Assembly: GCA_015233675.1 (NCBI GenBank)
Contig: JADFXH010000003.1
Location: 153,279-217,278 of the forward strand
DNA from: Candidatus Omnitrophota bacterium
GTDB taxonomy: Bacteria; Omnitrophota; Gorgyraeia; Zapsychrales; Fredricksoniimonadaceae
DNA length: 64,000 nt
Direction of reading: 5' to 3'
Shown one piece after another: positions 3,078-35,506 of the stretch. The stretch's first letter is position 1. Each line of letters opens with the position of its first letter. A program made the translations under genes and the position numbers. The notes beneath the pieces are model-generated. The model had not been told where the DNA came from, did no database searches, and worked only from the letters and a program-made list of their open reading frames with translations.

Positions 3078-4010
3078 ATGTTAATGAAGCAGTATGTCGT
3101 TGGTGTGGATGTTGGCGGCACCAATATTAAATTGGGAATCGTAGGCCCTTCTGGACAAGTAATTGTCAGAAACAGTTTTGCCACAAAGCCTTTTGCTTCA
3201 AGCCGAATTAAATTGATCTCTGCTTTGGCCAGCCAAATCGAAGCCAGCATTGTATCTTCCGGCTTAATCAAGAAACAAATTGCCGGAGTAGGCGTCGGTC
3301 TGCCCGGGCTTGTTGATTATGAGAAAGGCATTGTCCGGTTTCTGCCCAATATTCCTGGCTGGCGGGAAGTTCATTTAAAATCTATTCTTCAAAAAAAAAT
3401 TAAACTCCCTGTTTTTATCGACAATGATGTAAAAATAATTACTTTAGCAGAGTCCCAATTCGGTGCGGGGCGTGGAGTTAGGAATTTGGTTTGTTTGACT
3501 TTAGGCACGGGGGTAGGGGCGGCCTTGATTTTAAACGGCCAGCTTTACCGCGGGGAAGACAATGCTGCCGGTGAGTTAGGGCATATGCCGCTTAATGAAC
3601 ATGGGCCCAAATGCAATTGCGGGGGTTTCGGGTGTTTTGAAACTTATGTGGGTAATCGCGCTTTGTTTGCTTTGGCCTCCCGCGTGATGGGCAGGCCCGG
3701 TATGACCACTGAGACAATGTTTGCCTTGGCCCAAAAGGGAAATAAAAAAGCCCTTGTTTATTGGAAAATGGCAGCGAAACAAATTGGTAATGGGTTAGTC
3801 GGCATTGTCAATTTATTAAATCCCCGCCTGATCATTATTGGCGGAGGAGTCTCAAATAATGAAAAATATTTATTCAAGACTATCACAGACACCATTCGTC
3901 TCAGGGCCATGGGGCTGCAGGGATCAGCGTTTAAAATCAAACGTGCTAAATTTAAAGACGATGCCGGGATTATCGGTGCGTATGTATTGGTGACAAATGC
4001 GCAAAGGTAG
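3078..4010 (+). CDS. ROK-family glucokinase / sugar kinase
   Basis: ATP-binding N-terminus GVDVGGTNIKLGIV. ROK zinc cluster HMPLNEHGPKCNCGGFGCFETY. Confidence 0.85.
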   Translation: MLMKQYVVGVDVGGTNIKLGIVGPSGQVIVRNSFATKPFASSRIKLISALASQIEASIVSSGLIKKQIAGVGVGLPGLVDYEKGIVRFLPNIPGWREVHLKSILQKKIKLPVFIDNDVKIITLAESQFGAGRGVRNLVCLTLGTGVGAALILNGQLYRGEDNAAGELGHMPLNEHGPKCNCGGFGCFETYVGNRALFALASRVMGRPGMTTETMFALAQKGNKKALVYWKMAAKQIGNGLVGIVNLLNPRLIIIGGGVSNNEKYLFKTITDTIRLRAMGLQGSAFKIKRAKFKDDAGIIGAYVLVTNAQR

Positions 4011-6305: not shown

Positions 6306-7631
6306 ATGAAAATTACTATTATAGGTTCAGGTTATGTGGGGTTGGTCACGGGGGTTTGTTTGTCTAATATCGGGCATCAGGTGATTTGTGTAGATAATAA
6401 TCCCGATAAGATTAAAACTTTAAAAAAAGGGCGTTTGCCGATTTATGAGCCCGGATTGCTTGAACTGATGAAAGAATGCGTCAAAAAAAAGCGGCTTTCT
6501 TTTACAGGCTCCATCGGGGACGCAACTAAAAGTTCTCAAGTGATCTTTTTAGCTGTTCCAACCCCTCCCAAATCCAATGGGGACGCTGATATGACCTATG
6601 TGGAAAATGTGGCACGCCAGATCGCACAGCACATGGATTCTTATAAACTTATTGTAGAGAAATCAACTGTGCCGGCAGAAACGGGCAAGAAAATCCGCCG
6701 TACCATCAATTTGAATCTGGCTAAGAAATATAAACATGGCAATAAAATCCTATTGGATTTTGATGTGGCCTCAAACCCTGAATTCTTAAAAGAAGGCAGT
6801 GCGGTACACGATTTCATGAACCCTGACCGTATTGTTATTGGGGTGGAGTCCAAAAAAGCAGAGCAGCTTTTAAGGGAAATTTATAAGCCCTTAAAGCCTA
6901 AAATTCTGGTGACTAATATTGCCTCCGCCGAAATGATCAAACATTCCTCCAATTCATTCTTGGCCATGAAAATTTCTTTTATCAATGCGGTGGCCCAAAT
7001 TTGTGACCGGGTGGGGGCAGATGTTCTTAAAGTGGCTGAAGGCATGGGACTAGACAAACGTATCGGCCGGCAGTTTTTAGATGCGGGGGTTGGTTATGGG
7101 GGCAGTTGTTTTCCCAAAGATGTGGACGCGTTTATCCGTTTGAGCGAACAAAACGGATATGATTTTTCTTTATTAAAAGAAGTTCGGCGCATTAATGATC
7201 AGCAGCGCCATTGGTTTGTGCGTTTAGTAGAAGAAAAGTTGTGGAACATCAAGGACAAGACCATCGGCGTTTGGGGCGTCGCATTTAAACCGAACACCGA
7301 TGATATTCGCAGCGCCGCGGCCCTGGAAATTATTCAACTTCTGCAGGCTGAAGGAGCTAAAATAAGAGTTTATGATCCTAAGGCGCTGGAGAACGCCAAA
7401 AAGATTCTTCATGGAGTTACTTTCTGTGATAATGCCTATACGGTCGTTGAGGGCTGTGACTGCCTTTTACTTTTGACCGAGTGGCCGGAATTTAAAGATA
7501 TTGATTTTGTTCAGATCCGTGATGCCATGCGACAAACCGTGATCTTTGACGGCCGTAATTTTCTAGACGCGTTATATTTGCGGGGCATAGGATTTGAATA
7601 TTTTGGGACGGGCCGGGGCAAGGCTTTGTAG
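6306..7631 (+). CDS. ugd: UDP-glucose 6-dehydrogenase
   Basis: Rossmann motif [16 protein letters not shown]. Catalytic Cys motif [11 protein letters not shown]. About 440 aa, typical length. Confidence 0.95.
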
Positions 7632-7668: not shown

Positions 7669-8610
7669 ATGTCTAAGAAAATAGTTTTAATCTCCGGAGG
7701 GGCCGGCTTTTTGGGAAGTCATTTATGCGATTGGTTTATTGAGCATGGCTTTAAGGTGATTGCGGTGGATAATTTGATCACAGGGTCGCTTAATAACGTG
7801 GCGCATTTGAGGAAAAATAAAGATTTTAAATTTATGAAACAGGATGTCTCCAGGCCGTTTAAAGTTTCCGGGCGGATAGATTATGTGATGCATTTCGCTT
7901 CACCTGCCTCACCGGTCGATTACATGAATCATCCTATTGCCACCATGCTCGTCGGCAGCTATGGCACCCATCATTTGCTCGAAATTGCCCGTGCCAAGAA
8001 AGCAGTTTTCCTGATGGCGTCTACGTCTGAAGTTTACGGGGACCCTTTGGTCCATCCTCAAAAGGAGAGTTACTGGGGGAATGTGAACCCAAATGGGCCT
8101 CGCAGTATTTATGACGAAGCCAAGCGTTACGCCGAAGCAGCTGTTTTTGCTTATAAGCGTACATATAAGATGGATATAAAAGTTGTACGGATTTTTAACA
8201 CCTATGGGCCCCGGATGCAGATTAAAGATGGGCGGGTGGTGCCTAATTTTATCGACCAGATATTAAATCATCAGCCCTTGACTGTTTATGGCGATGGTAA
8301 ACAGACGCGTTCATTTTGTTATGTGGATGATTTAGTGGACGGCATAACAAGGTTGCTTTTATCTAAAATCTCGGGTCCTGTTAATATCGGCAATCCCCGT
8401 GAATTTACAATTTTAGAATTCGCCCGGCTTATCCGGACGAAATACAACCCTAAAGCTAAAATCATCTTTCAGCCCCTTCCTCAGGATGATCCTAAACAGC
8501 GGCGGCCGGACATCTCTTTGGCCCGTAAAGAATTGGGGTGGGAACCGAAGGTTGATTTGGAAGACGGTATCGGACGGACCATGGATTGGTTTGCGAAGAA
8601 TTACCGCTGA
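7669..8610 (+). CDS. uxs: UDP-glucuronate decarboxylase (UDP-xylose synthase)
   Basis: [27 protein letters not shown] (YxxxK), NTYGPRM. ATG 7669 is preceded by AGGAAGGA. The longer 7594 start overlaps ugd and is unlikely. Confidence 0.9.
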
Positions 8611-8647
8611 GGGTATATATTAACGCTAGTTTGACATAACGCATGCG

Positions 8648-8824
8648 TGGAAGCGTCTAAACTATGTTTTTGGTGACACGGGTTATTTTGGCCGTCTGCT
8701 GTGGTTTAGAACAAATTTTTTCTAAAGATTCTCTTCATTTGGAAAAAATTTGTTCTAAAACCTTGCAGACATCTGGCCAAAAAACCCTTAATGTGTCACC
8801 AGAAACATAGTTTAAACGCTTCCA
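8648..8824. repeat. foldback element A (long imperfect hairpin; pairing may extend to 8633-8834)
   Basis: The left arm TGGAAGCGTCTAAACTATGTTTTTGGTGACAC...TTTAGAACAAATTTTTTC pairs with the right arm GAAAAAATTTGTTCTAAA...GTGTCACCAGAAACATAGTTTAAACGCTTCCA. The loop is about 19 nt. Same family as element B. Confidence 0.8.
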
Positions 8825-8865
8825 TCCTTATGTCGCATTCACGCGCATCTGACAGGAGAGGCAGA

Positions 8866-9477
8866 GTGGTTACTAAAGATGACATAGTTGCCTTTGAAAA
8901 GGAGGTTGCAGATATTTTTGCAACCGGAGTCATTCGCGCTCCGGTGCATTTGCGCGCAGGGCGTGAAGATGCCCTGATCGCCATCTTTAAAGAGCATGCG
9001 ATCGGCAATGATGATTATGTGTTTGGTTTTTGGGATTCCCATGAATTGGCCCTTTTAAAAGGAGTGCCCCGCGAGGAGTTAAAGCAGGCGATCCTCGATG
9101 GGAAAAGCATATCCCTGTGTTTCCCCGAATATAAGTTGCTTTGTTCCGGTATCGTCGGAAGCCTCATGGGCACGGCGGCCGGGGTCGCTTGGGCTTTGAA
9201 GAATCAGGCTAAAAAAGGACGGGTATTTTTGTTTTGCGGGGACATGTCTGCGGAAACGGGCATTTTCCACGAGGCTGTCAAATATGCCTATAATTTTGAT
9301 TTGCCTGCCACTTTCGTTGTTTGCGATAATGGAGTGAGTGTCATGACCGATACCAGGGCTGTTTGGGGATGCCCTGAACCATGGTTTAAGGGCACTAAAT
9401 ATGAAAGTAAGATCATTTATTTTAAATATACCAACGGTTATCCGCATTCGGGGCTGGGGAAGTTGATAAAGTTTTAA
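8866..9477 (+). CDS. TPP-dependent enzyme, pyruvate-dehydrogenase E1 alpha-like subunit, half-size
   Basis: TPP-binding motif FCGDMSAETGIFHEAVKYAYNFDLPATFVVCDNG (GD...N). GTG 8866 follows AGGAGAG. The alternative ATG 8830 lies inside the hairpin of element A. Confidence 0.65.
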   Translation: MVTKDDIVAFEKEVADIFATGVIRAPVHLRAGREDALIAIFKEHAIGNDDYVFGFWDSHELALLKGVPREELKQAILDGKSISLCFPEYKLLCSGIVGSLMGTAAGVAWALKNQAKKGRVFLFCGDMSAETGIFHEAVKYAYNFDLPATFVVCDNGVSVMTDTRAVWGCPEPWFKGTKYESKIIYFKYTNGYPHSGLGKLIKF

Positions 9478-9488
9478 TGGATTGAAGC

Positions 9489-9652
9489 GTATGGCAATAT
9501 TATTCTCGACACGGGCTATTTTCGCCGTCCGCTACGGTTTACGGCAATTTTGTTCTATAGCATCCTTAGTGTATTTGGAACAAAATTGCCGTAAAGCCTT
9601 GCGGACATTTGTCGAAAAATCCCCGAATGTGTCGAGAATAATATTGCCATAC
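9489..9652. repeat. foldback element B (same family as A)
   Basis: 24-bp perfect outer stem GTATGGCAATATTATTCTCGACAC / GTGTCGAGAATAATATTGCCATAC. 18-bp inner stem TTTACGGCAATTTTGTTC / GAACAAAATTGCCGTAAA. The internal-loop sequence is conserved with A. Confidence 0.8.
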
Positions 9653-9701
9653 ACTTTGCCAAGGGGCATTTAAATTTCAAAGAACATCAAAGGCTATATA
9701 T

Positions 9702-10277
9702 ATGAAATACTTCGACGAATTAAAAAGGACCATGGAGTGGCTTTGCCAGCAGCCCAAGGTGATGTTCGTAGGACAAACAGTTGCGGGCCCGGGAACATTT
9801 ATGTTTCAAACCCTGCGCGACTGCACCAAGGAGCGCTGTCTGGAAATGCCTGTCAATGAAAGTTTTCAGATGCAATTTGCCGTTGGCCTGGCATTGTCCG
9901 GATATGTGCCTGTTTCGGTTTACCCGCGGCAGAATTTTTTACTGTTGGCCGCCTCTGACATGGCCAATATGCTCGATAAAATGCCTTTGATCTCCGGCGG
10001 CAAATGGCCATTGAAGGTGATCATCCGTGTCGCCACAGGCCCCGACGCACCCGTTCATCCCGGTCATCAGCATATCGGTAATTATGCAAAAGCTTTCCGT
10101 GAATTATTTGATTGGATTGAAGTCGTGGAGCTTAACTCTGCCGAGGAAATTTTTCCGGCCTATACTCATGCGTTGACCCGAGAGGACGGCAAATCTACCT
10201 TGATTATTGAGCACGGTAATTTTTATAATGAGGAATATTACGCCAAAGGTATGGTCACAACCCAGGCACCACATTAA
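9702..10277 (+). CDS. TPP-dependent enzyme, E1 beta-like (pyrimidine-binding domain only)
   Basis: VMFVGQTVAGPGTFMFQTL...EMPVNESFQMQFAVGLALSGYVPV resembles the transketolase Pyr domain. At 191 aa it lacks the usual C-terminal domain. Confidence 0.65.
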   Translation: MKYFDELKRTMEWLCQQPKVMFVGQTVAGPGTFMFQTLRDCTKERCLEMPVNESFQMQFAVGLALSGYVPVSVYPRQNFLLLAASDMANMLDKMPLISGGKWPLKVIIRVATGPDAPVHPGHQHIGNYAKAFRELFDWIEVVELNSAEEIFPAYTHALTREDGKSTLIIEHGNFYNEEYYAKGMVTTQAPH

Positions 10278-10284
10278 TAATCCC

Positions 10285-11220
10285 ATGCGCCGCGATTCCA
10301 GAATATTTATTGTTGGACATAATGACAGCATTGAAAATGCCCTTAAAAGTTATTTTCAGGCGCAGGGTTTTTCGCAGGTCCTTTCTAATACCCAAGACCG
10401 CGTCAATGTGCTGGATCAATGGCAGGTCGATAAGTTTTTTAAAAAGTTTAAACCCGAGTATGTTTTTTTAGGATCACTTCGCTCAGGGGGTATCGCGGCC
10501 AATCAAAAGTTCCCGGCGGAATTTATTTACGAAAATTGCCGGACGCAAGACTTAGTGATTGAGGCTTCCCATCGTTATAAAGTCAAAAAATTGCTATATT
10601 TTTCCAGCTCCTGCGTGTATCCCAAATTAGCCAAACAGCCCATGAAGGAATCATCCTTGTTGACAGGGCCTTTAGAGCCAACCAGTGAAGCCTACGCTGT
10701 CGCTAAAATTGCGGGTATAAAAATGTGTCAGGCTTATAGAGCACAATACGGTTTTAAGGCAATCGTCGCAGTTCCCGCAACCCTTTATGGCCCGGGCAGT
10801 GATACAGATATCGAATCTGCGCATGTCTTAGGTGCTTTAATTGCAAAATTTCATAAGGCTAAGAGTGAGGGGGCAAGTGAAGTCGTTGTCTGGGGCAGCG
10901 GTAAGCCGCGCCGGGAATTTTTGTATGTTGATGATTTTGTCAGCGCCTGCCTGTTTTTGATGGATCATTATGACGGCCCTGATGTGATAAACATCGGCAG
11001 CGGTGTCGACGTGACGATAAAGCAATTGGCCATGATGATCAAAAAGGCAAGCGGTTTTAAGGGGAAAATTATCTTCGATGCCTCCAAGCCCGATGGAACC
11101 ATGCGCAAACTTATGGACAATACCCGTATGCGCAAGCTGGGCTGGAAGGCAAAGGTCAGTTTAGAAGAGGGCATTGAGACAACTTATCAGTGGTATATTC
11201 ATAAGTCCGTGAATGGATGA
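10285..11220 (+). CDS. GDP-L-fucose synthase family (Fcl/ColC-like) 4-keto-6-deoxy sugar epimerase/reductase, atypical
   Basis: Colinear with Fcl: SSSCVYPKLAKQPM, EPTSEAYAVAKIAG (YxxxK), VVWGSGKPRREFLYVDD, DASKPDGTMRKL. The N-terminal Gly-rich loop reads GHNDSIE. Confidence 0.85.
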   Translation: MRRDSRIFIVGHNDSIENALKSYFQAQGFSQVLSNTQDRVNVLDQWQVDKFFKKFKPEYVFLGSLRSGGIAANQKFPAEFIYENCRTQDLVIEASHRYKVKKLLYFSSSCVYPKLAKQPMKESSLLTGPLEPTSEAYAVAKIAGIKMCQAYRAQYGFKAIVAVPATLYGPGSDTDIESAHVLGALIAKFHKAKSEGASEVVVWGSGKPRREFLYVDDFVSACLFLMDHYDGPDVINIGSGVDVTIKQLAMMIKKASGFKGKIIFDASKPDGTMRKLMDNTRMRKLGWKAKVSLEEGIETTYQWYIHKSVNG

Positions 11221-11336
11221 ACAGCTATTATGTGTTCGGTCCATTCAGGAATTTTCTGAGTACATAGTCGGCGGGTGGATTGGATTTAACATTAAAGCCG
11301 AGGCAGGTCCCGCTTGCATAGTAAAATGCATGTTAT

Positions 11337-11531
11337 GGATTCCCGCTTTCGCGGGAATGACAAGGAATGCAGCGGGAGTGACAAATGGATTCCCGCTTTC
11401 GCGGGAATGACAAGGAATGCAGCGGGAATGACAAATGGATTCCCGCTTTCGCGGGAATGACAAGGAATGCAGCGGGAATGACAGTTTATTTTAGTTCAGG
11501 AATGACAAGGAATGTCGTGGGAATGACAAGG
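11337..11531. repeat. tandem array of a 50-bp REP-like unit (3 near-identical copies plus degenerate tail)
   Basis: The unit GGATTCCCGCTTTCGCGGGAATGACAAGGAATGCAGCGGGA(A/G)TGACAAAT occurs at 11337, 11387 and 11437. Each carries the hairpin TTCCCGC-TTTC-GCGGGAA. Degenerate GGAATGACAAGG pieces run to about 11531. Confidence 0.9.
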
Positions 11532-12496: not shown

Positions 12497-12520
12497 GATT
12501 CCCGCTTTTGCGGGAATGAC
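12497..12520 (+). repeat. single REP-like hairpin (same family as the 11337 array)
   Basis: GATTCCCGCTTTTGCGGGAATGAC directly after the SDR stop codon. Confidence 0.7.
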
Positions 12521-16935: not shown

Positions 16936-17864
16936 TGGCCGTCCAAATTAAAACGAATGACCCGCTAGTTTCAGTTATTATCCCCACATATAACCGGTCA
17001 CGTGTTTTGCCCAGGACCCTTTCTAGTTTAAAAAGACAAACCTATAAGAATTTAGAAGTAATTGTTATTGATGATGCATCAACAGATGATACGGAAAAAG
17101 TGGTGAAATCTTTTGAGCGGGATTTAAATCTTGTTTATTTTAAGAATAAAATCAATCTGAAAATTCCTGCCCGTAGCCGTAATATCGGACTAAAAAAAGC
17201 CAGCGGGGAATACTTTGCATTATTAGACGATGATGACGAATTTCTTGAAAAGAAGATAGAAATACAGTTAAGAACCGCGCAATCTCTGGATGAAAAAGCA
17301 TTTATTTTGTGCAATGGGTTCACTATCGGCAAAAAGAGCCGCTATTTTGTTGATATAGAAAAGCCCAGCGGATTTATTCCAAGGGGCAAAGGGATTTTCC
17401 CGGCCAGGTACAAGCTGCCCTTCCCGTCATCATGGTTTTTCCATCGGGAATTAGTCGATAAAATTGGTTATTTTGATGAAGATATGTTTACATACGATGA
17501 TGTCGATTATTCTATACGCCTGATGGCGGAATATCCCGCTTATATGGTTAATCAATGCCTGGTTAATTGGCATACGTCGTATCCTGCTTTGTCGGGATTG
17601 TCGATGGAACATATTGAAGCAAGGAAATATTTTCTTAAAAAACATTTAGATTGGATTAGAGAAGACCGGTTCTGTTTATATAAGTTTTACTGGTCTCTGG
17701 GAAAAGACTTTAAACAGTTAGGAAGAACAACGGAAGCTATTCAATATTTTAAAAAGGCATTCTTCGTTAAACCGTATAAACTTGAAGCGGCGGGGAAGAT
17801 AGTCGGCCTGTTGTGCAAGGATATCGTCGCTAAAACTAAAATGCAGGGGGTTCACAAGTTATGA
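16935..17864 (+). CDS. glycosyltransferase family 2
   Basis: VSVIIPTYNRSRVL, VIDDASTDDT, LLDDDDEF (DxD). Confidence 0.85.
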   Translation: MAVQIKTNDPLVSVIIPTYNRSRVLPRTLSSLKRQTYKNLEVIVIDDASTDDTEKVVKSFERDLNLVYFKNKINLKIPARSRNIGLKKASGEYFALLDDDDEFLEKKIEIQLRTAQSLDEKAFILCNGFTIGKKSRYFVDIEKPSGFIPRGKGIFPARYKLPFPSSWFFHRELVDKIGYFDEDMFTYDDVDYSIRLMAEYPAYMVNQCLVNWHTSYPALSGLSMEHIEARKYFLKKHLDWIREDRFCLYKFYWSLGKDFKQLGRTTEAIQYFKKAFFVKPYKLEAAGKIVGLLCKDIVAKTKMQGVHKL

Positions 17865-18706
17865 AAATCAGCGGTACTACGATTGTGCGTAATGCCGTCA
17901 AATACGGGTACCCTGTCGTGGAAGCGGTACGTTCGGTTTTGCCTATTTGTGATGAATATATTATTAATGTCGGAGACTCTAGTGACGGCACGCTTGAATT
18001 GATTAAATCCATAAAAGACCCAAAGATCAAGATTGTTGAACGCGTATGGAACATGTCTGCCGGAAAAGAAGTGCTGTCGGATGAAACTAATTTTGCCATT
18101 AGTCAATGTAAGGGAGATTGGGTTCTTTACAACCAGACAGATGAAGTTCTTCACGAGAGAGATCTCCCCGGCATTAAGGAATACATGAAGAGGTATCTTA
18201 ATGACCCCAAGGTGAATGCGCTTCAATTTCGTTGGGTCCATTTTTACGGCAGTTTTTTCCGTTATCGGATTGATGCGGGATGGTTTCAGAAACAAGTCCG
18301 TGTTATTAAAAATAATGGCTTATGCAGGTCGCATGATGACGCATGGGGGTTTAGGCATCAAGACGGGACATCGTTAAAATCGGTTAAGACGCCTTTTTTT
18401 ATTTATCACTATGGGTGGGTCCATGACCCGCAGATAATGGCCAGTAAAATTAAGAACGCATTTGCTATTGGTTATTGTCCTAAGTTGAATGAGAAAGAGA
18501 AAAAGCCTGCATATGATTATGGGGACCTTTCTCGTTTTCCTGTTTTTTTTGGCACTCATCCGGCGGTTATGAACCATTTAATCGGGAAGCATGCTCTAAG
18601 CCAGCAAGATTGGCAAACAATCGTCGCGCAGTATTGGTGGAACCCTCTCTTGTGGTTTAGGGTCCGTTATAAAACCGGCCGGCGTGTTAAGGAAAAGATT
18701 ATCTAA
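17861..18706 (+). CDS. putative glycosyltransferase (GT-A-like)
   Basis: The N-terminus ISGTTIVRNAVKYGYPVVEAVRSVLPICDEYIINVGDSSDGT resembles GT2-like proteins. The call is weaker. Confidence 0.55.
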   Translation: MKISGTTIVRNAVKYGYPVVEAVRSVLPICDEYIINVGDSSDGTLELIKSIKDPKIKIVERVWNMSAGKEVLSDETNFAISQCKGDWVLYNQTDEVLHERDLPGIKEYMKRYLNDPKVNALQFRWVHFYGSFFRYRIDAGWFQKQVRVIKNNGLCRSHDDAWGFRHQDGTSLKSVKTPFFIYHYGWVHDPQIMASKIKNAFAIGYCPKLNEKEKKPAYDYGDLSRFPVFFGTHPAVMNHLIGKHALSQQDWQTIVAQYWWNPLLWFRVRYKTGRRVKEKII

Positions 18707-19712: not shown

Positions 19713-20788
19713 GTTATTCGATGAATTTTAAGAAAATTCTGATTATTAATCCTTATGGTATAGGGGATGTGCTCTTTACCACGCCGGTTATCAGTAACTT
19801 ACGGCGTGCTAATCCTAATGCCGTCATAGCATATTTAGCCAACAGCCGTACCGCGGATTTTCTTAAACATAATCCGGATATCAATAAGATTTTTGTATAT
19901 GACCGCGATAAATTTGTCGAAGTTTATCGCCAAAATCCTCTGAAATTTGCGCAGAAATGGGCTTTATTATTTAATGATATCCGTTGTGAGAAATTCGATG
20001 TCGTTTTTGATTTTTCGCTAAACAATATGTTTGGATTCTTATCTGCTGCCAGCGGCATAAAAAGACGTATAGGGTTTAATTACCGCGGTCGAGGGCAATT
20101 TTTAACTGGTAAGATCAAATTGGCAGGGTTTGAAGATAAGCATGTAGTGGATTATTTTCTGGATTTATTAGGTCTTGTAGATGTTCCGGTAGTGGAGAGA
20201 CATTTGACCCTTGCTGTTCCTTCCCAGGATTGCAGTTGGGCTAAAGACTGGATCCTTAAAAGTGGCATAGACGTCCGTAAACCTTTGGTGGCAGTGTTCC
20301 CCGGTGGTGGCGAAAGTTGGGGGAAGCAGGCTAGATACAGGCTTTGGGGCGCCGCTAATTACGCTCAATTAGTGGACAAAGTCATTGAAAATTTCGACGC
20401 TGCCGTTATACTGTTAGGAGATTCGAAAGATAAGGATTTGTGTCGGGAAGTTTCCCGCTTGTCACACTTTGCTTTGTATGATGCGGCGGGACAAACTTCT
20501 TTACTGGGATTGGCAGCGCTCTTTAAAAAATGCCGGGCGGCCATTATCAACGATGCGGGGGCTGTGCACGTGGCAGCGGCCCTCGGAGTCAAGGCTCTGT
20601 CAATTTACGGCCCCGTAGACCCGAATGTGTACGGTCCGTATCCTCCCGTAGAACACATGACTGTTCAAAAGGGTTTGCCTTGTCAGCCATGTTATCGTCG
20701 TTTTCGTATGCCGTATTGCAGTCATATAAGCTGCTTGCGTGATTTATCCGTCGAAGAAGTTTACAGAAAGGTCCAAAGTATCTTATGA
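19709..20788 (+). CDS. glycosyltransferase family 9 (LPS heptosyltransferase-like)
   Basis: ILIINPYGIGDVLFTTPVISNLRRANPNA and C-terminal INDAGAVHVAAALGV are typical of GT9. Confidence 0.85.
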   Translation: MSYSMNFKKILIINPYGIGDVLFTTPVISNLRRANPNAVIAYLANSRTADFLKHNPDINKIFVYDRDKFVEVYRQNPLKFAQKWALLFNDIRCEKFDVVFDFSLNNMFGFLSAASGIKRRIGFNYRGRGQFLTGKIKLAGFEDKHVVDYFLDLLGLVDVPVVERHLTLAVPSQDCSWAKDWILKSGIDVRKPLVAVFPGGGESWGKQARYRLWGAANYAQLVDKVIENFDAAVILLGDSKDKDLCREVSRLSHFALYDAAGQTSLLGLAALFKKCRAAIINDAGAVHVAAALGVKALSIYGPVDPNVYGPYPPVEHMTVQKGLPCQPCYRRFRMPYCSHISCLRDLSVEEVYRKVQSIL

Positions 20789-24393: not shown

Positions 24394-26168
24394 TCGCTCA
24401 AGTTGTTTTTGATTTGCCTCTCGATGGCCCCTTCGATTATTTGATCCCTGAGCATTTAATCCCTCAAGTTGTGCCAGGAACATGCGTTAAAGTGTCATTT
24501 GGAAACAAGACCAAAATTGGTTTTGTAGTCGGGATACTTTCTCAAAGCACATTTACAAAATTAAAGCCTGTAATGTCTTTGCAAGATTCCTCTGTGGTGT
24601 TTAGCGGCCTAGACTTATCTTTTGCGCATAAATTTTGTGCTTATTACGGCTGTAGTTTAGGTGAAGCGCTTGGGACGATGCTCAGGAACAAAACAGATCA
24701 CAGCCCTTGTGTCTGTCGAGACCATAAGCCGATGGCTTCTTTATATTGCTGCCGGCCCGACAGTTACGCTGTTAAAATTCAGGAAATCATAGACGGATAC
24801 ACAGATTCTGCGTCATTGGCTGGCAGTTTGTCATCCCCGCGAAAGCGGGAATCTTGTTTTTTGATTCTTGCGCCCGATATCTTCAGGAGCCAGACGCTTG
24901 CTTTACAGCTTAAGGGAAATTGTATTTTCAAGATAGGCATGCGATCTTCGGTGTTCGAATGCGACGGGCGGTATGATTGCGTCATTATGGTTGATGAAGA
25001 AGACCCCTCTTATAAGCAGGAATCAATGCCGATGTATGAAACGCGCCATGTTCTCTTGATGCGCTATGAAATGTACGGGTTTGATATTGCTTTTGTGGGT
25101 GTATCTCCGTCGGTAGAATTGATATCCATGGCCCGTGAAAAACAGATCAAGACCACTGAAAAGCTGGATGTAAGTTTACCCCCGGCGAAGGTGGTTGATT
25201 TATCTAATTATAAATTCATCCCTGGGCTGCTTTCCCCGCCGGTACGTGACGCGCTGGAGGCGGCATTGAAAGCAGGCAAAAAAAGTATTCTAGTTTTAAA
25301 CCGTAAGGGGTCGTATCGTTTGACCCGTTGTATTGATTGCGCAGAAATTCTAAAATGCAGCCATTGCGACAGCCCCTTGATCTATTCAAGGTCAGAAGGG
25401 AAGTATTTATGCCGTCATTGTACTTATACGGCCGCCGGGGACACGGTTTGCCCGAAATGCCATAAACCCAGCTGGCGGTCAGTCGGCATCGGGGTTGAAC
25501 AATTACAAGCAGAGTTAAAAAAATATTTTCCTCAGGCGAAAATTCTGGCCTTTGAGCGTACTACAAAACCGGCAATGAAGAGCCCTGAGACGAAACAATC
25601 TGTTTTTGATTTTGATATTTTAATTTCTACTAAGGCTGTCTTGCGTTTTCAAGGAAGGTGGCAGGCGCACATGGCGGCATTTATTGATTTTGATGCGGAA
25701 TTAAATCGTTTAGACATGCGTTCTGCTTTTAATGCTTTTAGTTTTGCTCTTCATATCAGCAGTATGGCGCTTGAAGCGGTATATATCCAGACTCGCAAGA
25801 GCCCTCATTATGTGCTGCGAAGCCTTTCTTGCGGTAAAACACAGGTATTTTATGATGAGGATTTGAAATTAAGAAGAGAATGTGGATTCAGCCCGTTTAA
25901 ACACTGGATTAAGATAAGTTGGCGGGGTAAATCAGAAAAATCAACACACCAAGCCGCCTGGCAAGTGTATAATAATTTAAACCAAACAGTAAATTACACC
26001 GTAACGCCCCCCTTGGCTGATGAGGTGGGCCGAAAACGCGACCAATTTCGTTTTAATGTGATGGTGCAGGCCAATCATGTGCCTCAAGCCATGATGTTTA
26101 TAAAATCTACCCTGGCTTCGATCAAACGCCACAGCAGGGTGATTGTTTCTTTGAATGTAGACCCTTAA
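24390..26168 (+). CDS. priA: primosomal protein N' (PriA)-like, helicase motifs degenerate
   Basis: PriA N-terminal DNA-binding domain (VVFDLPLDGPFDYLIP...GTCVKVSFGNKTKIGFV) and Cys-rich zinc region CIDCAEILKCSHCDSPL...CRHC...CPKC. DEED replaces DEEH. No GxGKT is present. Confidence 0.75.
   Translation: MIAQVVFDLPLDGPFDYLIPEHLIPQVVPGTCVKVSFGNKTKIGFVVGILSQSTFTKLKPVMSLQDSSVVFSGLDLSFAHKFCAYYGCSLGEALGTMLRNKTDHSPCVCRDHKPMASLYCCRPDSYAVKIQEIIDGYTDSASLAGSLSSPRKRESCFLILAPDIFRSQTLALQLKGNCIFKIGMRSSVFECDGRYDCVIMVDEEDPSYKQESMPMYETRHVLLMRYEMYGFDIAFVGVSPSVELISMAREKQIKTTEKLDVSLPPAKVVDLSNYKFIPGLLSPPVRDALEAALKAGKKSILVLNRKGSYRLTRCIDCAEILKCSHCDSPLIYSRSEGKYLCRHCTYTAAGDTVCPKCHKPSWRSVGIGVEQLQAELKKYFPQAKILAFERTTKPAMKSPETKQSVFDFDILISTKAVLRFQGRWQAHMAAFIDFDAELNRLDMRSAFNAFSFALHISSMALEAVYIQTRKSPHYVLRSLSCGKTQVFYDEDLKLRRECGFSPFKHWIKISWRGKSEKSTHQAAWQVYNNLNQTVNYTVTPPLADEVGRKRDQFRFNVMVQANHVPQAMMFIKSTLASIKRHSRVIVSLNVDP
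24830..24853 (-). repeat. REP-like hairpin copy inside the priA-like CDS (inverted orientation)
   Basis: GTCATCCCCGCGAAAGCGGGAATC is the reverse complement of the REP core with one mismatch. It is translated in frame as SSPRKRES. Confidence 0.7.
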
Positions 26169-29932: not shown

Positions 29933-30544
29933 ATGAAAAACGTCGGAATTTACGCAAGGGTCAGCACCGAAGATCAAACATCAATCCAGCAATTAGAGCA
30001 GTTACGGAATTATTGCGAGCAGAAAAAGCTAAACGTATATTCCGAGTATGTTGATGAGGGGGAGAGCGCCTTAAAAACAAATCGTCCAGAATACCAAAGG
30101 CTTTTAGAAGATGCACGTAAGCGAAAAATTGATACAATTCTGGTTTATAAATTGGATCGTTTTAGCCGGAGCCTTAAAGAGTTGGTCAACACGATTAGCA
30201 ACATAAAAGAATACGGGGTTAATTTTGTCAGCTTTATGGAAAAGGATTTTGATACAACTTCTGCCACTGGCCAGCTTATGTTTCACATCGTTTCCGCTTT
30301 TGCCCAGTTTGAAAGGGATATGATCTCGGAAAGAACGAAATTGAAACTTAATTATTTAAAAAGCAAGGGAATCAAATTGGGAAGGCCGCAGAAAGCGGAT
30401 TTCCAGCGTGTATCCAATTTAAGGGCACAGGGGCTTTCTTTAGGCCAAATTGGTCGGGAAATAGGTTGCGATAAGTCCACGGTATGTAAGGCGTTGAAAA
30501 AGGCCAATTACATTGGAAACAACGGCAACTGTGTTGCGGTTTAG
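29933..30544 (+). CDS. serine recombinase (resolvase/invertase family)
   Basis: MKNVGIYARVSTEDQ catalytic Ser motif, LDRFSRS, and C-terminal HTH GLSLGQIGREIGCDKSTVCKAL. Strong SD AAGGAG. Confidence 0.9.
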   Translation: MKNVGIYARVSTEDQTSIQQLEQLRNYCEQKKLNVYSEYVDEGESALKTNRPEYQRLLEDARKRKIDTILVYKLDRFSRSLKELVNTISNIKEYGVNFVSFMEKDFDTTSATGQLMFHIVSAFAQFERDMISERTKLKLNYLKSKGIKLGRPQKADFQRVSNLRAQGLSLGQIGREIGCDKSTVCKALKKANYIGNNGNCVAV

Positions 30545-34229: not shown

Positions 34230-34412
34230 ATGAGCAATCTTTTAACGCCAGAAAATATTTGCCAAAGGTATGGGGTAAGCATTTGGACTGTTTATCAATG
34301 GACTTCGAAAAGTTTGATCCCACATTTAAAAATAAGGGGAATGGTTCGTTTTAGAGAAGAAGACATTGAAAAGTGGGAAAGCAAAGGGGCCGTACAAGTA
34401 AATTTATTATGA
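34230..34412 (+). CDS. excisionase-type HTH DNA-binding protein
   Basis: LLTPENICQRYGVSIWTVYQWTSKSLIPHLKIRGMVRFREEDIEKW is Xis/MerR-like. Its stop overlaps the integrase ATG (ATGA). Confidence 0.7.
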   Translation: MSNLLTPENICQRYGVSIWTVYQWTSKSLIPHLKIRGMVRFREEDIEKWESKGAVQVNLL

Positions 34413-35506
34413 GAAAACGATTCAGAACACCGAGTATTTATAAACGCGGTCAGTGGTGGTGCTTTAAAATCACTAATTCTTTCGGTAAAAGGATTGAAAT
34501 AAAGTCGGTTTCCGAGAGAGAGGCAAAAATGAAGCGGTCAGAAACCACGCATCAAGTTATGAGCGAAGTGAATGGCTCTTTTACTTATCGAGTAAGCATT
34601 AACCAGGGAATTGAGTATTGGCGGCAACTCAAAAAGAACACAGTAGTTGTGCGTTCCCTTAATCGCTACGATGGAATCATGGATAATTTCAAAGCATTTA
34701 TTAGAGAGAAATATTCTCGGTTTAAATATTTTGATGAAACCCAGGAAGATGACTGCTTTGCCTTGAATTATAGAAATTACAGGATTAAGCAAGGTAGAGC
34801 GTCTAAAACAGTTCACGATGAAGAGAGTATGCTGTCGGATTTGTATAAGTTGTTAATTAGAAAGAAAAAAATAAGCAATATAAATCCTTTTAGTGATCTT
34901 GAACCATTATTAGTTGAGCCTGTCCAAAAGAGACGAGTAATACCTAACGATGAATTAATAAAGTTTTTTAATTTAGCCAAACATGACAGCGGTAAAATTT
35001 TTTGGTATGGACTATTTATGACTTTATATATGACAGGAATGCGTCGAGATCAAGTTAGGCTTATGGAAAAGTCTTGGGTTAATTTTGAAACAGGCCATTT
35101 TGAGTTTCCTCAGACAAAGACAATGAAAGGGAAGGTAATCTCAAAAACTATTCCAATACATCCAGAGTTGAAGTCTATATTGGCAGAAGCAATTTTAAAA
35201 TCAAAAAGTTTGTATGTTTTTCCAAATCGGGATAGCAAAGTATTACCCAAGAATGCGATTAGGGATAGGATGCAAAGAATATGTGCTGCTGCCAACATTA
35301 TGAAGTCAACGCCACATGATTTTAGGCATACTTGGAGCACAAAGGCCAGAATGTCTGGCATGTCCAATGAAGCCCGTAGAGAAATTGGCGGTTGGAGTTC
35401 GGACGAGGTGATGAATAGCACCTATACACATTATCCTGAACAAAAGGTACAGGACGAATATTTCGGAGTCAAATTCTTGGATTTTATGAGCAGTTCAAAA
35501 GCTTAA
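34409..35506 (+). CDS. tyrosine-type site-specific integrase
   Basis: C-terminal catalytic region TGMRRDQV..., HDFRHTWSTKA, GGWSS...YTHY. Confidence 0.9.
   Translation: MRKRFRTPSIYKRGQWWCFKITNSFGKRIEIKSVSEREAKMKRSETTHQVMSEVNGSFTYRVSINQGIEYWRQLKKNTVVVRSLNRYDGIMDNFKAFIREKYSRFKYFDETQEDDCFALNYRNYRIKQGRASKTVHDEESMLSDLYKLLIRKKKISNINPFSDLEPLLVEPVQKRRVIPNDELIKFFNLAKHDSGKIFWYGLFMTLYMTGMRRDQVRLMEKSWVNFETGHFEFPQTKTMKGKVISKTIPIHPELKSILAEAILKSKSLYVFPNRDSKVLPKNAIRDRMQRICAAANIMKSTPHDFRHTWSTKARMSGMSNEARREIGGWSSDEVMNSTYTHYPEQKVQDEYFGVKFLDFMSSSKA

Follow-up and report, generated by a model that had tools for sequence, protein, structure and literature searches.

Two foldback elements bracket the gene for an E1-alpha-like, thiamine-pyrophosphate-dependent subunit in a 64-kb stretch of a Candidatus Omnitrophota genome (contig JADFXH010000003.1, positions 153,279 to 217,278; this whole stretch of 64,000 nucleotides is called the window below, and coordinates refer to it unless a locus is named). 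These elements, A (8648-8824) and B (9485-9656), probably belong, as diverged copies, to an undescribed family of foldback repeats that are non-autonomous. This family resembles miniature inverted-repeat transposable elements (MITEs) and REPINs (hairpin-forming doublets of repetitive extragenic palindromes, REPs) and is atypical as a MITE. The unit of the family is a hairpin of ~175 nt (a ~180-base repeat), or ~215 nt when its imperfect basal extensions are included. We collected 19 copies as DNA, 15 intact and four degenerate, and ~30 more are known as spurious small open reading frames (ORFs); the family occurs in Omnitrophota and Planctomycetota. Because the copies are inserted into unrelated operons in these lineages, the family is better read as small mobile DNA than as a regulator built for this gene.

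Elements A and B form long hairpins with a conserved core

The initial annotation described two related foldback elements, in the same orientation, on either side of the E1-alpha-like gene, and both are recovered there by inverted repeats and by folding. Element A (plus strand) is a complete foldback hairpin according to inverted repeats, RNA fold and covariance model. It consists of a basal block (GGAAGCGT/ACGCTTCC), a variable outer stem (arms 8648-8679 and 8793-8824, 32 nt, 94% complementary), the conserved core, an inner stem (arms 8694-8726 and 8738-8770) and the apex. Element B (plus strand) is also complete and has the same architecture with other outer and inner stems (outer arms 9485-9512 and 9629-9656, 28 nt, 96% complementary; inner arms 9527-9555 and 9578-9606); its stem begins at 9485 and not, as first described, at 9489. 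Each element is a near-perfect hairpin of ~175 nt and ~85 bp that is nearly continuous as RNA. The RNA fold energies are -104.7 kcal/mol for A (z = -17.6) and -93.4 kcal/mol for B (z = -13.4) relative to dinucleotide shuffles, and the opposite strands fold equally well (-100.2 and -93.5 kcal/mol, respectively). Folded as single-stranded DNA, A reaches -64.4 kcal/mol (z = -14.9). Covariance-model scores are 182.9 bits on the plus and 67.1 bits on the minus strand for A, and 179.6 and 71.1 bits for B.

The left half of the conserved core of A (GACACGGGTTATTTTGGCCGTCTGCTGTGGTTTAG, 8675-8709, plus strand) was located by pattern match and by the invariant columns of alignments of 8 and 14 copies, and in the right half (8757-8797, plus strand) two bulges are conserved, ATCT (4 nt) and TTAAT (5 nt). 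Exactly two occurrences of the left core GACACGGGYTATTTTSGCCGTCYGCT lie in the window, against none expected. Aligned in register as direct repeats, A and B are 75-79% identical over their cores, and the basal GAAGCGT block is common to both, whereas the outer stems have almost no sequence in common. The internal regions that had been described as asymmetric are indeed a conserved core, but most of its two sides pair with each other, and the hairpin is truly asymmetric only at a 1-nt bulge in the left arm and at the 4-nt and 5-nt bulges in the right arm. A loop of about 20 nt had been proposed for both elements, which fits B (~22 nt) and not A (~11 nt).

The elements lie in blocks inserted at compact operon junctions

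Pfam annotation of the window ORFs places A and B in a long polysaccharide-biosynthesis operon. It encodes a UDP-glucose dehydrogenase (6306-7631), an NAD-dependent epimerase/dehydratase (ending at 8610), the E1-alpha-like subunit (8866-9477, plus strand; Pfam E1_dh, 203 amino acids, GTG start, intact) and an E1-beta-like subunit with a transketolase pyrimidine-binding domain (9702-10277, plus strand; with a new start codon downstream of B), together with further epimerases, a radical SAM protein, a GHMP kinase and a nucleotidyltransferase. The E1-alpha protein is 83-92% identical over 100% of its length to homologs from metagenome-assembled genomes (MAGs) of Candidatus Omnitrophica.

We compared these junctions with four orthologous operons from related Omnitrophota contigs (L010, L011, L012 and L013). 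The epimerase and E1-alpha genes overlap by 11 nt in L011 and L012 and are separated by 8 nt in L010, with 1 nt between E1-alpha and E1-beta in all three; in L013 the two gaps are 65 and 74 nt, and in the window 255 and 224 nt. The covariance model found no copy of the element in the four orthologous loci (55 kb). Since the orthologous operons have overlapping or closely spaced genes and no element, A and B sit in inserted blocks. As judged from this sequence comparison, both are insertions into junctions that are compact in the closest relatives and that are probably translationally coupled there. The E1-alpha gene itself occupies the same place in relatives without a flanking element, so it is native to the operon and not an imported cassette.

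The block carrying A (8603-8865, plus strand, ~263 nt relative to L010, L011 and L012) comprises a new stop codon for the epimerase (TGA, 8608-8610), a left flank of ~38 nt holding ACGCATGCGT, the hairpin and a right flank of ~41 nt with the ribosome-binding site GGAGAGG just 5' of the GTG start at 8866. Homology with the relatives ends after TGGTTTGCGAAGAAT and restarts at GTGGTTACTAAAG, which is the E1-alpha start (ATG in the relatives). The block carrying B (9478-9701, plus strand, ~224 nt) follows the E1-alpha stop (TAA, 9475-9477) and runs up to a new E1-beta start (ATG, 9702), which has AAAGG in front of it; this block stands in place of the TAATATG junction and the first 6-7 E1-beta codons of the relatives. 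These relatives are ~90% identical in amino acids, which is too diverged for the exact insertion ends to be read. At exactly the A and B junctions, L013, a more distant ortholog of the operon, carries other small hairpins (AACGCTA-type repeats, 9936-10000 and 10613-10686 of that locus), and several repeat families seem able to land at both operon junctions.

Copies are scattered across unrelated operons

Genome and metagenome DNA was scanned with a stringent 22-nt left-arm pattern containing 20 fixed bases. In species-representative genomes the true copies are L002, in a Planctomycetales MAG, and L003, in an Omnitrophota MAG, and a third match (L001) was discarded as a chance match inside a gene. 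Metagenomes gave four further copies (L006-L009), and the DNA pattern scans yield eight copies in total. No true copy was found in viral contigs scanned with right-arm and left-arm patterns, where the two matches (L004 and L005) are located in coding sequence, nor in a plasmid collection searched by BLASTN in distant mode. A pseudo-peptide profile search of a protein collection returned 33 small "hypothetical proteins" from metagenomes that run across copies, 32 of them new, and we examined contig DNA for six of the 33 and gene tables for a seventh. A covariance-model search of the new loci added L014, L014b, L016, L018a, L018b, L019, L020a, L020b, L024 and L025. Exact-pattern scans missed most of the family because the GACAC/GTGTC helix covaries itself, with GGAAC/GTTCC, GGCAC/GTGCC, GAAAC/GTTTC and CACAC/GTGTG among the peptide variants. 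Over the copies the covariance model scores 150-195 bits on the forward and 44-78 bits on the reverse strand, so the element is oriented. The window also holds a truncated third copy, reduced to its left outer arm (GGATGAACAGCTATTATGTGTTCGG, 11215-11239, plus strand), in which 23 of 25 bases equal the outer arm of L007; it is unique in the window (none expected by chance), lacks core and right arm, and contains the TGA stop of the gene at 10207-11220; an array of short palindromic repeats comes next.

The copies were found between hisB and hisH (L006), after parE (L007), between uvrA and a TPR protein gene (L008), between a DUF6515 gene and a response regulator (L002), between a MurG-like glycosyltransferase gene and a peptidase (L003), between a GATase gene and nadE (L014), between nuoG and nuoH (L016), between dnaJ and dnaK (L020), between oppA and oppB (L024) and between leuA and leuS (L025); in L018 the site is in a polysaccharide cluster, between an epimerase gene and a GT4 glycosyltransferase gene. 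Several start at or overlap the upstream stop codon, and in L014 the TAA lies within the outer stem. Pairs of copies occur 830 bp apart (A and B), ~250 bp apart (L018a and L018b) and ~190 bp apart (L020a and L020b); the members of a pair belong to different subfamilies and are mutually inverted in L018 and L020. Relative to the flanking genes, 12 of the 18 oriented copies are sense and six antisense. Such scatter across unrelated operons is expected for a dispersed insertion element, and not for a riboswitch-like or operon-specific regulator. It had been proposed that the two elements are RNase III-type or insulator devices that set the stoichiometry of the alpha and beta subunits. This proposal is not supported: four orthologous operons do without both elements, unrelated operons hold further copies in either orientation, there are four decayed copies, neither strand is enriched in G-U pairs and the two strands fold alike.

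Two further features were seen in the copy-bearing loci. In L020, the 1-kb spacer with the two hairpin copies also contains three tandem 38-nt repeats upstream of dnaK (TGACACATACCCTAYGACTACGAARAAATAGGGAATAT, 10757-10870) and three short palindromic repeats. L018 carries an unrelated cobalamin riboswitch (19910-20031; 31.8 bits against an Rfam gathering threshold of 31.5) upstream of a TonB-dependent receptor gene.

Stems change in sequence and remain paired

Every copy has an outer stem of 20-35 bp that is variable but self-complementary, a likewise variable inner stem and the conserved asymmetric core (GACACGGGnTATTTTnGCCGTCnGCTACnGTTTAC on the left and GTAAAnCCTTGCnGACnTnTGnCnAAAAAnCCCnnAATGTGTC on the right, with 1-, 4- and 5-nt bulges), and the apex exists in at least three versions across the family. 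RNAalifold on eight copies gave 61 pairs, 27 of them with double-sided changes. In the 14-copy model alignment, double-sided change affects 34 of 61 pairs and 94.7% of cells are paired, compared with 38-48% pairing in slid-register controls. The covariation score of 0.421 exceeds that of shuffles (0.144; none of 500 reaches the observed value) and of slid registers (~0.08). The initial annotation had deduced compensatory change around a conserved core from the differing, yet complementary, stems of A and B; the copies from other genomes extend that observation, and on the 14-copy alignment the covariation is well above controls.

Changes on both sides of a pair outnumber changes on one side (1176 against 402 differences over all sequence pairs), and the closest pair, L006 and L007, differs by three compensated and two single changes. 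The palindrome extends past the homology between copies in several cases, for example in L018a with its perfect 35-bp outer arm. This efficiency of pairing fits strong selection for a paired substrate in lineages that are still spreading. Arm-to-arm template switching, the mechanism of quasi-palindrome correction, may have produced the near-perfect complementarity as well.

The 776 stem cells of the 14-copy alignment, whose counts are not independent, comprise 727 Watson-Crick pairs, six G-T, 16 A-C and 27 other mismatches. G-U pairs are thus not enriched on either strand, and with wobble pairs this rare, the G-U tolerance that a selected RNA typically has is seen on neither strand; the six G-T and 16 A-C counts, again not independent, give no strand assignment. 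This bears on a different explanation for the pairing, namely that the hairpin is a selected cis-acting RNA module for processing, stability or translational insulation (for example an RNase III site) at operon junctions, possibly spread horizontally, with its stems kept paired by selection on the RNA fold. Such a module would account for the strong covariation with conserved bulges, and a few apex pairs are conserved as U-G on the plus strand, but the plus and minus strands fold equally well and wobble pairs are scarce elsewhere in the stems. Its position would also suit a role in mRNA, since all 18 oriented copies lie between co-directional genes and would be co-transcribed, sense copies are in excess and the flanking genes are intact, with a new ribosome-binding site and start codons; yet one third of the copies are antisense to their operon, the gene contexts are unrelated, decayed copies exist and the orthologous operons evidently work without the element. 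The absence of an Rfam match and of promoter or terminator signals above background likewise counts against the module, which we regard as rather unlikely.

A permissive Rfam scan of the window region returned only hairpin noise of the microRNA-precursor type, far below threshold, and nine other copy-bearing loci gave no match on the element at gathering threshold, so the search suggested by the initial annotation assigns the hairpin to no known family. A hammerhead HH10 match (22 bits against a threshold of 75) was treated as noise. In the promoter and terminator scan, signals were at or below shuffle expectation, and an independent transcription unit was rejected for this reason. We also dropped 6S RNA, signal recognition particle RNA, Y RNA and retron non-coding RNA: there was no Rfam signal, the hairpin has no large central bubble, its contexts are unrelated and no reverse transcriptase gene was seen near the element.

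A small protein gene is an extremely improbable reading of the 44-87-amino-acid ORF that is open in one frame across most copies, and it was rejected. No copy with the commonest apex type interrupts the frame, which gene callers predicted 33 times, but it is closed in copies with the second apex type and its start position differs between copies. Variation at codon positions 1, 2 and 3 (0.145, 0.173 and 0.127) shows no third-position excess, and radical amino-acid changes mirror the base-pair covariation (F/L/W/S opposite E/Q/P/G). None of the ORFs has a Pfam domain on record.

Subfamilies, ends and decayed copies

Four subfamilies can be distinguished by their outer stems: L006, L007 and L019; L009, L014b and L024; window copy A and L018b; and L003, L014, L016 and L018a. 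Because members of a subfamily have the outer stem in common, this stem belongs to the copied unit. An RCGCA(T) motif is enriched at the foot of the stem or just outside it: by eye it was noted on the left in 5 of 15 flanks and on the right in 8 of 16 (~3% expected). All four degenerate copies, L014b (17821-18077 of locus L014), L018b (10394-10590 of L018), L019 (1270-1455) and L025 (9990-10154), have their lesion in the left arm directly after GGGATAT. In L014b the lesion is an insertion of ~80 nt bounded by ATATTCCC...GGGAATAT, which suggests nested insertion at the site of the bulged A.

Relation to known hairpin repeats and recombination sites

Bacterial MITEs include long stem-loops that are found at the 3' ends of genes and are co-transcribed, and compensatory changes have been described for bcr1 (PMC3184786). 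Of the known kinds, the hairpin-forming ERIC (~127 bp, Enterobacteriaceae), Correia (104-157 bp, Neisseria) and bcr1 elements (~155 bp, Bacillus cereus group) come closest to the present family. Like these, it is small, non-coding, palindromic and intergenic, often lies right after stop codons and inside operons, occurs in both orientations and varies in presence between related genomes; with bcr1 it also has compensatory base-pair changes in common. At under 400 bp, non-coding and without a transposase gene, it has the size and coding character of a MITE, and its dispersal agrees as well, with 19 copies in unrelated contexts and none in L010-L013. In classical MITEs, however, the terminal inverted repeats are conserved and the target site is duplicated (TA, or 5 bp in bcr1), whereas here the ends vary between copies and are common only within subfamilies, the conserved block is internal, no consistent duplication is seen, the hosts belong to two phyla and copy number is apparently low.

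REPs and REPINs are mobilised in trans by RAYTs, REP-associated transposases of the IS200/IS605-like Y1 type that are encoded elsewhere. The family, which is also close to these elements, resembles them in having a hairpin as the functional unit, a short conserved motif beside the stem foot and a symmetric evolution of paired positions; REPs and REPINs lack a target-site duplication, and no consistent one is seen here. REPs measure 20-40 nt and REPINs ~100 nt, and they reach tens to hundreds of copies per genome with an identifiable RAYT gene adjoining. The hairpins described here differ in size (~175 nt) and in their apparently low copy number (less than one copy per 50 kb outside sites chosen for having a copy), and no RAYT was found in the sequence examined.

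The bracketing of one gene by two copies in the same orientation raises a further alternative, in which the hairpins are structure-specific recombination sites, either attC-like with E1-alpha as an excisable cassette or units of an array like NIMEs (the intergenic mosaic elements of Neisseria). attC sites are imperfect oriented palindromes that flank genes and are recognised as folded single strands; as in attC, structure and extrahelical bases are conserved more than sequence in this family. The likeness does not extend to the core sites: R'' (RYYYAAC) and R' (GTTRRRY) boxes are absent from A and B and, as read from the sequences, are not common to the ends of the copies. There is no cassette array and no IntI. 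A tyrosine recombinase is encoded 25 kb downstream, but its only matches are to generic Xer-type models and score far below the cut-offs, and it is no integron integrase. Copies tend toward pairs (window, L018 and L020), yet most loci are single-copy, no arrays occur, the L018 and L020 pairs are inverted and E1-alpha stands at the same place in relatives without flanking elements. The integron attC reading was rejected on the missing R boxes and the native position of the bracketed gene.

As to the second form of this alternative, NIMEs (dRS3 - RS - dRS3) have been reported as specific to Neisseria (PMC1797815), and long conserved hairpins do not figure in the description of their RS elements (19-214 bp). 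The Neisseria dRS3 pattern ATTCCC-N8-GGGAAT is matched by a short palindromic repeat, ATTCCCGC(TTTC/GAAA)GCGGGAAT. This repeat occurs in the window at 11339-11358, 11389-11408, 11439-11458, 12498-12517 and 24833-24852, forming an array with a 50-nt period in the operon, and is also present in L006, L007, L020, L016 and L019. The repeat lies 5-25 nt upstream of five copies, among them L006, L007, L020a and L020b, where it precedes the left end of the hairpin in constant relative orientation. In L007 three such repeats follow one another at distances of 249 and 238 nt and two of them enclose the hairpin, which resembles a NIME unit, but this is the only copy with dRS3-type repeats on both sides, and neither A nor B adjoins one, the nearest being the array at 11339-11458. 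Taken with the evidence on attC, we consider structure-specific recombination sites very unlikely. At the third short palindromic repeat of L007 begins a small GIY-YIG-like ORF (3520-3800; MDYYVYILASKKNGTLYIGVT..., noted by eye), and a link between this repeat family and a GIY-YIG nuclease is possible.

The EAR RNA is a processive-antitermination element inside the Bacillus eps operon. Element A and element B are similar to it as structured intergenic elements within a polysaccharide operon; unlike EAR, they have no Rfam match, and the family also occurs antisense and outside polysaccharide operons.

Elsewhere in the window, a serine recombinase with a resolvase domain (29933-30544) and the generic tyrosine recombinase (34373-35506) lie in a low-GC stretch. 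GC falls to about 0.39 across 30-40 kb, and several ORFs there match no family; the stretch lies where the polysaccharide cluster ends and probably represents an integrated mobile element.

Probable mobility and its possible consequences

Several observations weigh against a mobile foldback family. Its outermost ends are the least conserved columns (mean non-consensus 0.36, against 0.14 in the core), and the flanks of the collected copies contain no consistent direct target-site duplication at the palindrome boundaries, although the palindromic ends could hide a duplication of TA or AT. No transposase, other partner or autonomous element with the same arms was found: none of the window ORFs scanned is a transposase (the material being the 64-kb window and loci of up to 20 kb), and all six true matches of the stringent left-arm pattern in the genome and metagenome scans are short hairpins, none beside a transposase gene. 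Density looks low: ~63 kb of the window and the 55 kb of orthologous sequence hold no further copies. None of the collected copies is near-identical to one at another locus, so there is no sign of recent transposition. The exclusive position between co-directional genes is also compatible with a selected role in mRNA. Finally, window copy A and a copy in a Planctomycetales MAG have the same 37-nt apex, base for base, and such identity needs horizontal transfer or strong selection.

The first interpretation of A and B is supported in part. It favoured a structured RNA or protein-bound hairpin over a recently copied MITE; covariation and the lack of near-identical copies and of obvious duplications agree with it, and the many near-identical copies with target-site duplications that would mark a plain MITE do not appear among the collected copies, whereas the dispersal of the element fits an insertion-competent hairpin and not an operon-specific device.

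We still favour a non-autonomous foldback family. The folded hairpin, as single-stranded DNA, cruciform or RNA, would together with its sequence-specific core be the substrate of a trans-acting mobilising enzyme, and from this role it would follow that only lineages with paired stems go on spreading; template switching between the arms may add to the complementarity. In the operon of the window, the insertions would have broken the original translational coupling, and the inserted blocks would now supply the stop codon, ribosome-binding site and start codons. Two hairpins of ~85 bp would enter the operon mRNA as candidate RNase III or stability sites, presumably a by-product rather than the reason for the element; a putative effect of these hairpins on processing or translation of the operon mRNA is plausible. 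A more far-reaching version is unlikely in our view: the hairpins would form a new structure-defined mobile class that crosses phyla, with a core recognised by an enzyme acting on single-stranded DNA or RNA and arms, also where they extend past the homology between copies, matched by active arm-to-arm copying instead of slow compensatory selection, possibly serving as a portable mRNA-processing site in operons.

Omnitrophota are uncultured and their genomes are poorly annotated, and we found no repeat family described for them in the literature searched. The present family indicates that tightly coupled Omnitrophota operons tolerate insertions of ~220-260 nt, after which the blocks hold new stops, ribosome-binding sites and starts. 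The element also yields dozens of spurious "hypothetical proteins" from gene callers, and these could be masked with a covariance model. Should a dedicated mobilising enzyme come to light, a new system of protein-hairpin recognition would be defined by the conserved core with its bulges; otherwise the elements would be one more MITE-like family. In either case, a long hairpin keeps near-perfect pairing despite complete turnover of its stem sequence, so that the family offers a natural case in which selection on structure can be cleanly told apart from a mechanistic symmetrisation of palindromes.

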